Source: a virus (lineage: Duplodnaviria; Heunggongvirae; Uroviricota; Caudoviricetes). From it: DNA of 40,069 nt. Within the stretch, counting starts at the first letter, position 1; each line of letters begins with the position of its first letter. Location of the stretch: IMG/VR virus record IMGVR_UViG_2526164633_000045, positions 1-40,069 of that record, one strand, 5' to 3'. The position numbers and the translations under genes were made by a program. Positions 21,817 through 31,991 of the stretch are shown here, in pieces. The notes beneath the pieces were generated by a model that was not told the origin of the DNA, made no database searches, and saw nothing but the letters and a program-made list of their open reading frames with translations.

Positions 21817-21892
21817 TGGTGCTGGTTAACGGACTTGAACCGCTACCCATTCGCTTACAAGGCGACTGCTCTACCATTGGAGCTAAACCAGC
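21817..21892 (-). tRNA. Candidate tRNA, anticodon TGT (Thr) by manual folding
   Basis: Minus-strand 76-nt sequence GCTGGTTTAGCTCCAATGGTAGAGCAGTCGCCTTGTAAGCGAATGGGTAGCGGTTCAAGTCCGTTAACCAGCACCA: perfect 7-bp acceptor stem, D-arm GCTC/GAGC with GG, T-arm AGCGG-TTCAAGT-CCGTT, anticodon loop CTTGTAA (one G-A mismatch at the base of the anticodon stem), encoded CCA. Confidence 0.65.
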
Positions 21893-21897
21893 ATATT

Positions 21898-21972
21898 TGG
21901 CGGGACAGCGTGGACTCGAACCACGATAAGAAGGTTAACAGCCTTCCGTAATGACCTTTATACGACTGACCC
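21898..21972 (-). tRNA. Candidate tRNA, anticodon GTT (Asn) by manual folding; some non-canonical pairs
   Basis: Minus-strand ~75 nt GGGTCAGTCGTATAAAGGTCATTACGGAAGGCTGTTAACCTTCTTATCGTGGTTCGAGTCCACGCTGTCCCGCCA: perfect anticodon stem GAAGG/CCTTC with loop CTGTTAA, perfect T-arm CGTGG-TTCGAGT-CCACG, acceptor stem with one U-U mismatch, weak D-stem. Could be a degenerate or pseudo tRNA. Confidence 0.5.
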
Positions 21973-28270: not shown

Positions 28271-29159
28271 CGTGTTCACCCTCACGAACTTTCAGGTAGG
28301 TATTATCGTTAAGCAGGAAATCAAATCCCTTTTTGTGCCAGATAGTTCCGCGTTGATGGTTTGGACGCTCTTCGAACATCCATCGGCAATTTTCGCCTAC
28401 GTAGCTCAAATAATTTCTCCAGTCCTGCATCGTGAACCCATGCCCGTCAAGCTGGCGTGTTATCACTCCGGCTTTGCGCCAGAACGTTCGGATCTGGTTT
28501 TTACGCTTGTCATTCAGTGCGCGGATTCTTGGCGCTTCAGGAAGGATTTCGTGGTAAGCATCGACAACATCCTGACAGCTGACGGAAGGTTTTTTCTTGT
28601 CAGACTTTTTGTCTGCTGTGGCACTCTCTAATACGTCAGTATTAGAGATAATATTATTATATTCTTTATCTGTGGTAATTTGCTGGTAATCTGCTGGTAC
28701 AGTATTGCTTGCATGCATTGGTATTGCTGGCTTTGAGGTGGTAATTTGCTGGTAATCTGCTGGTACAAAATTTGACTGATAATCGTCATATTTCTCTACC
28801 GAGAAAACTGAGAATTTACCGTGTGAAACCCAGTCAATCATGCCGAGTTTTTTGAACTTTCTAAGCAGGTACTGAACGCGATCTGGTTTGAGTCCTGTTT
28901 CAAACGCCAGAGAGTTTCTACCGCCAAGTAGCTTCCCTCTGCCTACCAGAATTTCTCCTGCGTCAGTCATTACATACTCAGGCGTATGCTTTGCTTTGAG
29001 GATTAAGTGAACCCACAGATGCGCTGCTTCTGCGTCCTTGTAAAACGGCACATCCATAATTTTACGGTGCAGCAAGGCATACCCCTTACCGCTGCTTTGA
29101 TGCGGTTGTTGTAGCCTTCTGGCCTCTCTGGCTTCGGCTAGATTAGATATGTTACTCAT
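28260..29159 (-). CDS. Replication initiator (lambda O / P22 gene 18-like) containing the origin iterons
   Basis: 299 aa; position between cII and the helicase; internal duplicated peptide [10 protein letters not shown] encoded by DNA iterons. Confidence 0.8.
28646..28766. repeat. Candidate replication origin: AT-rich tract plus two copies of a ~29-bp unit, each holding two GGTAAT(T/C)TGCTGG iterons
   Basis: TGGTAATTTGCTGGTAATCTGCTGGTACA occurs twice (~28673-28701 and ~28738-28766) within the O-like gene, preceded by ATAATATTATTATATTCTTTATC; mirrors lambda ori lying inside O. Confidence 0.65.
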
Positions 29160-29298
29160 GACCTTTCTCCTTCTGCATCAGCTTCACTTTTTCCAACTCA
29201 GCCCGGAATCGACAAGGCTGCTTGAAGCTGGACAGGAAGCGATCACGTAGTATGTGTTTGTGAATTTTGTCCTGGTAAGGACTGAGTTGTTTTGTCAT
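29152..29298 (-). CDS. Possible small ORF (48 aa) between cII and the O-like gene
   Basis: Hand-read ATG with GGAG RBS; stop overlaps the O-like start. Overlaps the candidate pO promoter, so it could be non-coding. Confidence 0.3.
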
Positions 29299-29299
29299 A

Positions 29300-29385
29300 A
29301 TGACTCCTGTGGATTGATCCAGTCTTTCTACATCAGGCCTCGAAGAATTCGCCGTTCTTCGGGGCTTTTTCTTTTGTCAGGATTC
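29300..29385 (+). ncRNA. Candidate OOP-like antisense RNA overlapping the 3' end of cII
   Basis: Plus-strand hairpin CGAAGAA-loop-TTCTTCG followed by GGGCTTTTTCTTTT lies antisense inside the last codons of cII; a CATAAT -10-like hexamer sits ~80 nt upstream (~29296). Geometry matches lambda pO/oop. Confidence 0.45.
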
Positions 29386-29611
29386 TGGCTACTTTCTTAG
29401 CCAGTTCCGCCAACTCCTCGTCTTCAACACCCCATTCAAGAACAGCCAGAAGCATTCCCATTTTGGGGATGAAGCTATCTTTCCATCGCGAAATTTGCGA
29501 TTCATTAATCCCTAACGCGTCGGCAACCTTTCGCTGACCACGTACAGCAATTCGATTCAGGATGTTGCTTGTAATTGCATTCGCTTTCTTGCGAGTACTT
29601 GTAAGTTGCAT
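29333..29611 (-). CDS. cII: CII transcriptional activator
   Basis: From [62 protein letters not shown] matches lambda CII (helix-turn-helix ...KSQISRWK...LLAVLEWGV); start refined. Confidence 0.9.
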
Positions 29612-29669
29612 ATGTAAGTATTTCCTTAACAAATAAGAAGTTATGCGCATCAAATTATGCGCGTTGTAT

Positions 29670-29712
29670 TCCCGCATTTCGGCGGGAATGATGACCATGA
29701 CTGTTAAAGAGC
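29670..29712 (-). promoter_or_regulatory. nutR-like site: boxA (GCTCTTTAACA) plus boxB hairpin (TCCCGCCGAAATGCGGGA)
   Basis: Minus-strand boxA consensus followed ~14 nt later by a 6-bp-stem hairpin, immediately downstream of cro; identical boxA and boxB copies occur upstream of N on the plus strand. Confidence 0.75.
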
Positions 29713-29719
29713 GGTGTTA

Positions 29720-29914
29720 CTATTTGTTTTTCTTGTTGCTTGGGAAAGGACGAACTTCCTCTCCAATCACACTGCCATCAGGCTTTACCGTAACCATGAT
29801 GTTACGGCCTGCCAGAATGGCCTTGCTGATAGCGCACTGGATTACACCAAAGTCACTGGCTGCTTTAGCCTGTCCATGGATTTTGGCGTAATCGGCAAGT
29901 GTCATTCGAATCAT
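29720..29914 (-). CDS. cro: Cro repressor
   Basis: [62 protein letters not shown] parallels lambda Cro; start taken at the ATG with GGAGAG RBS (track ORF starts at an upstream GTG). Confidence 0.9.
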
Positions 29915-29944
29915 ATGCACTCTCCGTTATTAACCATGAACAAA

Positions 29945-30009
29945 GAATACTACAGGTATTCAAAGCAATCAATACTCAGGGTATTTTTAGTTTAAGTACC
30001 TTAGCTATT
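29945..30009. promoter_or_regulatory. OR operator cluster (three AATACnnnnnGTATT-type sites) with divergent pR/pRM
   Basis: GAATACtacagGTATTC (~29945-29961), AATACtcaggGTATT (~29971-29985), AGTACcttagCTATT (~29995-30009); centre spacing ~24-25 bp. Candidate pR on minus strand TTGATT-17-TATTCT overlapping sites 1 and 2; candidate weak pRM TAGAAT -10 just upstream of the cI ATG. Confidence 0.7.
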
Positions 30010-30020
30010 AGAATTAAGCT

Positions 30021-30737
30021 ATGGAAAATAAAAAATCACTGACGACAGAACAGCTCGAAGACGCTAAGCGGCTTAAGGCTTTGTATGAGTCAAAAAAGAA
30101 AGAATTGGGAATAACCCAATACTCAATCGCTGATGAACTGGGTATCACCCAAGGAGCGGTAGGGCATTATCTTAATGGCAGAAACGCGCTAAACGTTGAG
30201 GTCGCATCTGGTTTTGCACGTTTGTTGCAAGTCTCAATTGCTGATTTTAGCCAGTCAATTGCTGCCAAGGTTGCAGAACAGGCAGAAAGCCTTAAGAGCG
30301 ATGCCAACGTAAGGTATGCAGGGGAATACAGAGCAGGAAAGAGGTATCCGGTGTTAAGCAGTATCCAGGCTGGCTCGTGGTGTGAAGCATGCGAACCATA
30401 CACCATTAAAGACATAGATGTTTGGCTTGAGTCTGACGCGCATATTCAAGGTAATGCGTTCTGGCTTAAAGTGGAAGGTGATTCAATGACGGCACCGGTT
30501 GGGTTAAGCATTCCAGAGGGAACATTCGTTCTTTTCGATACCGGAAGGGAGGCGATCAACGGCAGCTTGGTCATAGCAAAACTTTCTGACTCTAACGAAG
30601 CAACATTCAAGAAGCTGATAATCGACGGCGGAAATAAATACCTCAAGGGACTTAATCCTGCATGGCCTCTCGTGCCAATCAATGGAAACTGCAAGATTAT
30701 AGGCGTTGCAATTGAGACAAAACTAAGGCTGGTTTGA
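30021..30737 (+). CDS. cI: CI repressor (LexA-like S24 autopeptidase family)
   Basis: 238 aa; N-terminal HTH (...LGITQYSIADELGITQGAVGHYLNG...), Ala-Gly cleavage site, Ser/Lys C-terminal domain (...EGDSMTAP...TFKKLI...); colinear with lambda CI; no RBS, consistent with a leaderless pRM transcript. Confidence 0.93.
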   Translation: MENKKSLTTEQLEDAKRLKALYESKKKELGITQYSIADELGITQGAVGHYLNGRNALNVEVASGFARLLQVSIADFSQSIAAKVAEQAESLKSDANVRYAGEYRAGKRYPVLSSIQAGSWCEACEPYTIKDIDVWLESDAHIQGNAFWLKVEGDSMTAPVGLSIPEGTFVLFDTGREAINGSLVIAKLSDSNEATFKKLIIDGGNKYLKGLNPAWPLVPINGNCKIIGVAIETKLRLV

Positions 30738-30754
30738 TCACGCAAGGGGCGATT

Positions 30755-31123
30755 ATGGTTGGAACCGCTATAGCAAGCTTTTTTGGGATGTTGGCAATCT
30801 CGACAATTTACGGCTTAGCGCATGCTTTTATTGCGAAATCTCTATCAGAAAAAATAAGCCAGGCTTGGGCGCATAGATCAGCTCGTTTCATGATTCTGGT
30901 GATCATAGCAATACAAGGGATATCTGCATTTATCCTCTATGGATCAAGCTTATACCTATTGTATCAAGGCGCGACATTTACGCCTTACACCAGTGATTAC
31001 GGAACTCTATACGATGGTAGTGAAGACATCACTGTGGCTTGGATCGTCTTTGGTTTATCTATGGCCGTGTCTGTTGTAGCAGACATCATTAAGGTAATTC
31101 TCGTCTTAACCTTCGCTGACTAA
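30755..31123 (+). CDS. Small inner-membrane protein co-transcribed with cI (rex-position accessory gene)
   Basis: 122 aa from ATG 30755 (AAGGGG RBS); ~4 predicted TM segments (MVGTAIASFFGMLAISTIYGLAHAFIA..., FMILVIIAIQGISAFILYGSSLYLL..., VAWIVFGLSMAVSVVADIIKVILVL); no similarity to RexA/RexB noticed. Confidence 0.6.
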   Translation: MVGTAIASFFGMLAISTIYGLAHAFIAKSLSEKISQAWAHRSARFMILVIIAIQGISAFILYGSSLYLLYQGATFTPYTSDYGTLYDGSEDITVAWIVFGLSMAVSVVADIIKVILVLTFAD

Positions 31124-31209
31124 CCTATAATCCCGGCAGCAATAGCTATCGGGATCCACTTCACATATCCCGCATAAAAAGCACTGAACAAGCAGACACC
31201 GAAAAAATA

Positions 31210-31296
31210 AATATCCTTTGTATTCATTTGCTTATCATTATTTCACCAAAAATAAATACCTTGGGTATTTACACAATAAAATACCTACAGTATTCT
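31210..31296. promoter_or_regulatory. OL operator cluster and candidate pL promoter
   Basis: AATATcctttGTATT (~31210-31224), AATACcttggGTATT (~31255-31269), AATACctacaGTATT (~31280-31294); plus-strand TTTACA-17-TATTCT overlaps the last site and points toward N. Confidence 0.65.
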
Positions 31297-31342
31297 TTAG
31301 CCATCAGCAGGGCGCTGGAAGCCAAACGGAACAGATTGGCAG

Positions 31343-31383
31343 GCTCTTTAACATTGATGGGATTGTCCCGCCGAAATGCGGGA
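31343..31383 (+). promoter_or_regulatory. nutL-like site: boxA (GCTCTTTAACA) plus boxB hairpin (TCCCGCCGAAATGCGGGA)
   Basis: Same boxA and boxB sequences as the nutR candidate, located between pL and the N gene. Confidence 0.75.
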
Positions 31384-31490
31384 ACCAAAGAGTAGTTGGC
31401 TTTGGGGTGACGTGAAGTGCAGCTGCACGACGGCAACCGGAAGATAAGCACCCGGCGCGTCACCGCCAAAGTCAATCATCGGAGGTCAAC

Positions 31491-31763
31491 ATGACAGTAG
31501 TCATTACATATCTGGCTGACGATAACGCCAGAAATCGCCGCAGAGCACGCAGACAGGCTCAACGTGAACAGGCAATGCAAGAGCAGCGACTGGCACGAAA
31601 AATTGCGCTAAAGCTCTCTGGTTGCGTCAGAGCAGATAAAGCAGCATCACTCGGAAGCCTTTGCTGCAAGGAAGAAGATGAACGCAGTGGAAGTATTTGC
31701 CTGCCAAACGTAGCCATTTACGCGGCAGGATACCGGAAATCAAAACAACTGACAGCGAGGTAA
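31491..31763 (+). CDS. N: Antitermination protein N (P22 gp24-like)
   Basis: 90 aa; N-terminal arginine-rich motif (NARNRRRARRQAQREQ) and C-terminus ...LPNVAIYAAGYRKSKQLTAR closely resembling P22 gp24. Confidence 0.85.
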   Translation: MTVVITYLADDNARNRRRARRQAQREQAMQEQRLARKIALKLSGCVRADKAASLGSLCCKEEDERSGSICLPNVAIYAAGYRKSKQLTAR

Positions 31764-31766
31764 GTG

Positions 31767-31991
31767 ATGAATCAGACATACATTCCATCATGCTTGAGAA
31801 ATCTGCCAAAGCAGAAAGCAAAGCCCCGCAAGCAAGCCATAAAGGACGCTAAGGCAGAGGTTATTGATCAAGCAATACAATTGCTCAGGGAGGAGTTAAG
31901 AAGTGGCAAGCTCGAAGGAATGATGATGCCCTATCAGCGCGGATATCTATCGGCGATTAGTAAGTTGGAAGTATTGAAGAGTGAATTATGA
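31767..31991 (+). CDS. Hypothetical early protein (74 aa)
   Basis: ATG at 31767 with GAGG upstream; the track ORF begins at the preceding GTG. Confidence 0.5.
   Translation: MNQTYIPSCLRNLPKQKAKPRKQAIKDAKAEVIDQAIQLLREELRSGKLEGMMMPYQRGYLSAISKLEVLKSEL

Follow-up and report, generated by a model that had tools for sequence, protein, structure and literature searches.

The 40,069-nucleotide (nt) stretch of viral DNA analysed here (IMG/VR record IMGVR_UViG_2526164633_000045, Caudoviricetes; hereafter the window) carries at positions 29290-31770 what we read as the immunity, or lysis/lysogeny, region of an HK620-type lambdoid (P22-like) prophage, one that most likely works as that of lambda does; we put the probability of this reading at about 90%. 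The region follows the lambda gene order, inverted relative to the usual lambda map, with an oop-like unit, cII, nutR, cro, a control region of 106 base pairs (bp), cI, hkaS, a second control region, nutL and N. The sequence elements, their confinement to this region, and the homology of four regulators and of the oop block to known systems can be observed directly. The functional labels that a first-pass annotation had assigned from the letters alone all agree with this homology evidence and with the annotation of the near-identical phage HK620.

The closest described region is that of HK620 itself (AF335538; Clark et al. 2001, J Mol Biol 311:657), which aligns with window positions 29303-31763 as a single ungapped piece of 2,461 bp at 98.3% nt identity, while phages phi296 and phi367 match the same interval at 100% identity. 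The AF335538 record marks pRE, a CII site, tR1, nutR, pR, OR1-3, tIMM, OL1-3, pL and nutL, and when these features are transferred to the window (locus coordinate + 27802) they fall on the same bases as the sites proposed in the first-pass annotation, OL3 excepted. The genes cII, cro, cI, hkaS and N are present in both, the two sequences differ at a few points, and alignment revealed no difference in any operator or nut sequence; the HK620 record carries no oop or pRM annotation. The record of phage mEpX2 likewise annotates both boxA sites. This near-identity of cI, cro and operator DNA places the window in the imm HK620 type. Because the region is 98.3% identical to HK620, whose public record marks almost all of its sites, nothing essential in it is new, and among lambdoid prophages it is ordinary. 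It was found over at least 80% of its length in 146 of 5,426 complete Escherichia coli genomes (~3%). Outside the immunity region the window is a different mosaic of P22-like, HK620 and Sf6 sequence, of which the best single phage record covers no more than 45%.

The four regulators are as follows.

29333-29611, minus strand: cII, 92 amino acids (Pfam Phage_CII PF05269, E = 1e-42; cII in the HK620 annotation)
29720-29914, minus strand: cro, 64 amino acids (Pfam Cro PF09048, E = 4e-26)
30021-30737, plus strand: cI repressor, 238 amino acids (Pfam HTH_3 and Peptidase_S24)
31491-31763, plus strand: N antiterminator, 90 amino acids (Pfam N_peptide PF25694, E = 5e-15; phrog_271; N in HK620)

CI is 43% identical to lambda CI over its full length and Cro is 63% identical to lambda Cro, and the two genes diverge around a shared control region, with a helix-turn-helix and an S24 domain in CI, as in a lambda-type switch. 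N is a small basic protein encoded by the first gene of the pL operon, its start lying 195 bp past the pL -10 hexamer, and besides matching PF25694 it carries an arginine-rich motif (residues 11-27, DNARNRRRARRQAQREQ; core NARNRRRARR, residues 12-21). Lambda shares the gene order and the divergent pRM/pR layout; it has rexAB where the window has hkaS, and it has P where the window has a DnaB-type helicase.

For the working of this region, each step of binding, activation and antitermination is carried over from lambda. Dimers of CI would bind 17-bp operators with the half-site (A/G)AATACC, and bound CI would silence both early operons because the -10 and -35 elements of pR and pL share bases with OR1/OR2 and OL1/OL2. 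At OR2, centred at about -43, CI would touch RNA polymerase and activate a leaderless pRM, whereas the weak OR3 and OL3 sites would provide negative autoregulation, with OR3 overlapping pRM and shutting it off at high CI. The S24 domain should permit RecA-stimulated self-cleavage of CI, after which Cro and N would be made: the minus-strand transcript from pR would cover cro, cII and the replication genes, and the plus-strand transcript from pL would cover N. In each RNA the boxB hairpin would be bound by the arginine-rich motif of N, and, helped by Nus factors on boxA, N would let RNA polymerase pass tR1 and tL. The expected site of CII action is pRE, and cII expression may be limited by a short oop-like antisense RNA.

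A very different view would take the region for the decayed remains of a prophage that no longer functions, its sites being mere fossils. Such remnants exist, as phage mEp213 carries a decayed copy of this N module in which boxB carries a stem-breaking change, boxA is absent and an insertion intervenes. In the window, however, every open reading frame (ORF) is intact, both nut sites are perfect, and the sequence is 100% identical to that of phi296 and phi367, which are deposited as complete genomes with K514 as the listed host, besides its 98.3% identity to HK620. We consider decay highly improbable.

Operators, promoters and the placement of OL3

The first-pass annotation proposed that three operator-like palindromes flank cI on each side. 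A scan of the 40-kb window for AATACN5GTATT with at most one mismatch returned five matches, all at 29946-29985 or 31210-31294, where chance would supply 1.06 and none of 100 shuffles reached five. A similar density elsewhere in the window would have spoken against a specific operator family, and the matches lie only beside cI. A half-site profile was trained on the four perfect sites and used to rank the ~40,000 positions of the window; it placed the remaining two sites at ranks 5 and 9. The putative CI/Cro operators, given without strand, and the promoters they overlap are listed below.

29945-29961: OR1, GAATACTACAGGTATTC (motif and profile; HK620 annotation)
29970-29986: OR2, CAATACTCAGGGTATTT (motif and profile; HK620 annotation)
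29994-30010: OR3, weak, AAGTACCTTAGCTATTA (two mismatches; profile rank 9 of ~40,000; HK620 annotation)
31209-31225: OL3 as first proposed, AAATATCCTTTGTATTC (profile rank 5, the best non-training score in the window)
31254-31270: OL2, AAATACCTTGGGTATTT (motif and profile; HK620 annotation)
31279-31295: OL1, AAATACCTACAGTATTC (motif and profile; HK620 annotation)
29944-29972, minus strand: pR, -35 TTGATT (29972-29967), 17-nt spacer, -10 TATTCT (29949-29944) (sequence; HK620 annotation)
31268-31296, plus strand: pL, TTTACA-17-TATTCT (promoter scan; HK620 annotation)
29986-30014, plus strand: predicted pRM, -35 TTTAGT (29986-29991) abutting OR2, -10 TAGAAT (30009-30014) (lambda geometry)

Three related 17-bp pseudo-palindromes per side thus overlap pR, pRM and pL, a tripartite, promoter-overlapping arrangement that lambda shares, although the putative half-site, (A/G)AATACC, differs from the TATCACC of lambda. 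The spacing had been described as lambda-like, which holds for five of the sites and fails for OL3: centre-to-centre distances are 25 bp for OR1-OR2, 24 for OR2-OR3, 25 for OL1-OL2 and 45 for OL2-OL3, against 24, 23, 24 and 20 bp in lambda. Across 25 distinct related sequences, operator substitutions were confined to the central 5-nt spacer, which fits half-site recognition, while OR3 and the palindrome at 31209-31225 were invariant; overall variation is low, so the invariance of OL3 is not significant alone.

It is at OL3 that the window and the HK620 record part company. The record places OL3 at the equivalent of 31232-31248 (TTATCATTATTTCACCA) and labels the palindrome that we take as OL3 as the terminator tIMM (31205-31235). 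Under the HK620 labels, 31209-31225 would terminate the cI-hkaS transcript and the real OL3 would lie at 31232-31248, an arrangement that would also account for a palindrome 45 bp from OL2 where the lambda OL3 lies 20 bp away. With the operator profile, however, the annotated site comes out at -35 bits (rank 26,765). It has no operator similarity, and nowhere in the intergenic region do the 25 related sequences vary more than at positions within it, whereas 31209-31225 is the best match outside the training set. The A/T-rich tIMM palindrome folds as RNA at -0.6 kcal/mol (z = +0.45; equalled or bettered by 116 of 200 shuffles) and failed the terminator scan, and on fold energy we ruled it out as a terminator. 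Because the GenBank OL3 is unlike the profile and variable and the tIMM hairpin is no better than shuffled sequence, we favour 31209-31225 as the candidate OL3 and regard the arrangement given in the record as quite unlikely.

A comparison with phage Fostie (PP925832) was no help in settling OL3, as its operators are arranged differently. This phage has a different architecture, a CI whose N-terminal domain is 68% identical to that of the window, and operators of the related AGTACN5GTACT type at 2420-2490 and 3255-3335 of the stretch examined; at the sequence level it shows a small shift in half-site specificity within the repressor lineage of the window.

The shared TATTCT -10 hexamer claimed for pR and pL was recovered by promoter scan for pL and by reading the sequence for pR. 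In both promoters the -10 hexamer overlaps the first operator (OR1 or OL1) and the -35 hexamer the second (OR2 or OL2). In lambda, whose pRM geometry guided our placement of the corresponding promoter, the cI mRNA is leaderless. The predicted pRM, which is not annotated in HK620 and has a weak -35 (TTTAGT), would have its start point at the first base of the cI ATG, and since no Shine-Dalgarno sequence is present the cI mRNA would be leaderless here as well. The automatic annotation of phi296 (PV189400) calls a 65-amino-acid ORF over pL, OL and nutL (window 31218-31415; 3419-3616 of the phi296 stretch examined) and another gene over the cro start and part of OR (2077-2196 of that stretch); these gene calls over regulatory DNA are almost certainly spurious.

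Two positions compete for the CII site of pRE.

29565-29578, plus strand: perfect TTGC-N6-TTGC in the 5' end of cII, candidate CII site of pRE (the CII site of mEpX2)

This repeat lies 33-46 nt inside cII, whereas the HK620 record sets its CII site elsewhere, at an imperfect repeat at the very start of cII (29588-29611). TTGC-N6-TTGC occurs in the window at chance frequency (four found, 3.6 expected) and therefore cannot by itself place pRE. Another copy is present at 31818-31831 (minus strand), just downstream of N.

A putative oop-like antisense RNA

A hairpin-terminated antisense unit resembling oop had been proposed over the 3' end of cII, and both a terminator and homology to lambda were found there. 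The unit itself falls outside 29670-31383, the interval delimited in the first-pass annotation.

29293-29301, plus strand: pO-like promoter, extended -10 TGTCATAAT (aligns without a difference to the lambda pO -10 block)
29309-29372, plus strand: putative oop-like antisense RNA, ~64 nt (start placed from the lambda +1)

The putative RNA overlaps the last ~40 nt of cII, and a terminator scan located a G+C-rich 14-bp stem (29335-29367) followed by the T-run TTTCTTTT and ending at 29376 on the plus strand. Intrinsic termination inside the 3' end of cII would give a short transcript able to pair with the cII mRNA. Its predicted fold has two hairpins at -28.8 kcal/mol (z = -4.3), beside -28.5 kcal/mol (z = -4.3) for lambda oop. 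Upstream of the terminator, nearly every base of the block TTTGTCATAATGACTCCTGTGGATTGATCCAGT agrees with the lambda pO -10 or with the start of oop, and alignment identified TTTGTCATAATGACTCCTGT-GAT-GATCCAGT as common to the window and lambda pO/oop. The pO -10 of the window lies within, and its pO/oop block matches, the 33-nt block with which Hayes et al. 2012 aligned oop in 23 lambdoid phages, HK620 included (PMC3349717); Clark et al. had been the first to point it out, in comparing HK620 with lambda. With a conserved pO -10 and oop 5' block lying between cII and the replication genes and antisense to cII, the unit is, as judged by alignment, a true homologue of lambda pO/oop.

Several features of the control DNA weigh against our reading of the region as a lambda-like switch. 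Two of the operators, OR3 and OL3, are weak, and the distance from OL2 to OL3 is 45 bp; pR matches the consensus at 8 of 12 positions, just under the threshold of the scanner; pO has no recognisable -35; and no intrinsic terminator that could credibly end the cI-hkaS transcript came out of the terminator scan or of folding. The labels in the HK620 record are computational too ('putative'), and a literature search for experimental data on HK620-type CI, Cro or N found none.

The nut sites and the probable pairing of N with boxB

The proposal that boxA and an identical boxB occur after both cro and pL proved exact: boxA (GCTCTTTAACA) is present at 29702-29712 (minus strand) and 31343-31353 (plus strand) only, one mismatch adding none across the 40-kb window, and the 18-nt boxB (TCCCGCCGAAATGCGGGA) is present at 29670-29687 (minus strand) and 31366-31383 (plus strand), up to three mismatches adding none where 0.02 matches would be expected.

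29670-29713, minus strand: nutR, boxA CGCTCTTTAACA (29713-29702), 14-nt spacer, boxB UCCCGC-CGAAAU-GCGGGA (29687-29670) (HK620 annotation, same bases)
31343-31383, plus strand: nutL, boxA GCTCTTTAACA (31343-31353), 12-nt spacer, boxB (31366-31383) (motif scans, fold; HK620 annotation)
29645-29662, minus strand: candidate tR1, hairpin GCGCAU-N6-AUGCGC followed by a U-rich tail (-9.4 kcal/mol, z = -2.1; tR1 of HK620)
31395-31476, plus strand: long N-leader hairpin, downstream of nutL and ahead of the N start (-44 kcal/mol, z = -4.1)

Both early transcripts therefore carry a boxA of the CGCTCTTTA kind and a boxB hairpin upstream of their first terminators, the candidate tR1 lying directly downstream of nutR, and lambda has the same boxA-spacer-boxB order after cro and pL. 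The lambda N leader carries a stem that is processed by RNase III; the long hairpin of the window occupies the corresponding position and may have a similar role. This hairpin is partly conserved in a phage 21-type relative too. At gathering thresholds, Rfam returned only two tRNAs in the window, with no family over boxB or oop.

The boxB fold consists of a 6-bp stem (8 bp in nutR) closed by a 6-nt loop, CGAAAU, and so departs from the pentaloops of lambda and P22, as had been suggested. The phage 21 N-boxB structure, PDB 1NYB, is reportedly that of Cilley and Williamson (2003). Lambda and P22 boxB pentaloops take GNRA-like folds, and the boxB of phage 21 is a CUAACC hexaloop in which a GNRA-like UAAC core is flanked by a C.C pair (PDB 1NYB; PMC12550061). 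A hexaloop boxB is thus not unprecedented, and the predicted loop of the window resembles the phage 21 class, with a 4-nt GNRA-like core inside a pyrimidine-pyrimidine mismatch, C-GAAA-U in the window and C-UAAC-C in phage 21. The two share boxA (GCTCTTTAACA) and differ in stem and loop sequence, in the core (GAAA, a canonical GNRA, against UAAC) and in the N motif (DNARNRRRARRQAQREQ against GTAKSRYKARRAELIAERR). Relative to lambda, whose boxB is the pentaloop GAAAA, the N motif also differs and the proteins cannot otherwise be aligned, although the window motif aligns with lambda N at RRxRRAxxQAQ and conforms to the lambda/P22 pattern A-x-x-R-R-R-x-R-R.

How N and boxB vary together is revealed by two comparisons. 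In the Stx1 phage phiSTEC801, the upstream sequence and boxA are as in the window and the C-terminal 54 residues of N are ~93% identical, and most of the divergence falls in boxB and in the first ~33 codons of N, as two islands; in phiSTEC801 boxB reads UCUCAAC-CUAACC-GUUGAGA and the N motif is of the phage 21 type, GTAKSRYKARRAELIAERR. The second comparison was a scan of IMG/VR with a pattern of boxA and the stem CCCGC/GCGGG that let both the spacer and the loop vary; it matched at least 120 contigs, many of them near-duplicates. Among the matches listed, the loop was CGAAAT in 199 of 201 sites, in a set where the query fixes the stem, and the boxA-boxB spacer differed from site to site. All N proteins found downstream of nutL (in 81 of the 120 contigs listed) keep DNARNRR(R/K)A(R/K)R, while their C-termini, in a comparison that included mEpX2, are of three types, those of HK620, phage 21 or P22. 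The nutL-nutR distance falls into several discrete classes among these matches, from ~1,120 to 2,960 bp, which implies that one N/nut module flanks different cI/cro cassettes. Together these patterns support the view that the arginine-rich motif and boxB form a specificity pair, exchanged together between phages.

This joint exchange speaks for an N specificity that may be distinct from the characterised ones. We see an even chance that the HK620-type N motif (DNARNRRRARRQAQ) and its boxB constitute a fourth, structurally uncharacterised N-boxB class, orthogonal to lambda, P22 and phage 21, in which a lambda/P22-like peptide would read a phage 21-like hexaloop with a C.U-flanked GAAA core. The alternative, that recognition is not distinct and that lambda or P22 N could cross-react, draws on the alignment of the motif with lambda N at RRxRRAxxQAQ and on a GAAA core that, as a canonical GNRA, could take the same fold as the GNRA-like lambda and P22 pentaloops (PMC12550061). 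The loop is nevertheless closed by a C.U mismatch, the stem sequence is unlike those of lambda and P22, and among the IMG/VR matches listed the nearly invariant loop is always paired with the window-type motif. In phage 21-type relatives, moreover, both motif and boxB have been exchanged, which is what a specificity pair would lead one to expect. We accordingly find cross-recognition by lambda or P22 N rather doubtful. A sequence search of the PDB with N gave no match even at E = 10, and a full-text literature search for the boxB string or the N motif gave none either.

Phage mEp213 (NC_019720) has its own N beside its cI; another N gene, intact, of HK620 type and 94% identical, lies more distally in the pL operon. 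Ahead of this second gene stand the same leader hairpin, a boxB in which a G-to-T change breaks the stem, and an unrelated insertion of ~250 bp, with no boxA (3126-3141 and 3501-3773 of the stretch examined); it looks like an orphaned N module.

Neighbouring genes and wider meaning

Two further small genes accompany the regulators.

30755-31123, plus strand: hkaS, multi-pass membrane protein of 122 amino acids (HK620 annotation; phrog_6534, function unknown)
29152-29298, minus strand: hkaW, 48-amino-acid DUF2740 ORF (HK022 gp53-like), between oop and the O-like replication gene

Lying directly 3' of cI on the same strand, hkaS occupies the position of lambda rexAB and could be a prophage-expressed exclusion or conversion gene; a PADLOC search with it gave no match. 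A 35-amino-acid hydrophobic ORF that converges on hkaS (31120-31227, minus strand), its ATG abutting OL3, is probably not a gene, since it is frameshifted in about a quarter of the related contigs and its point changes are non-synonymous. The start codon and ribosome-binding site of hkaW sit on sequence that begins gene O in lambda, which, unlike the window, has no small DUF2740 ORF between oop and O; the label 'tail protein' that hkaW bears in PHROGs and in the phi296 record is implausible at such a position. The late-regulatory section of the prophage contains two adjacent tRNA genes at 21820-21972 (minus strand; Rfam, 61.5 and 55.3 bits).

As a discovery the region carries little weight, being a textbook lambdoid switch whose HK620 counterpart has been annotated in GenBank since 2001, and its value is modest. 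It corrects the HK620 label at OL3 and tIMM, and it shows an N motif and a boxB that appear to be passed on and exchanged as a unit, tied neither to boxA nor to the C-terminal part of N nor to the cI/cro cassette. If this pair does form a class of its own, that class would be abundant, with at least 120 IMG/VR contigs, and might offer an additional orthogonal RNA-tethering pair beside those of lambda, P22 and phage 21.

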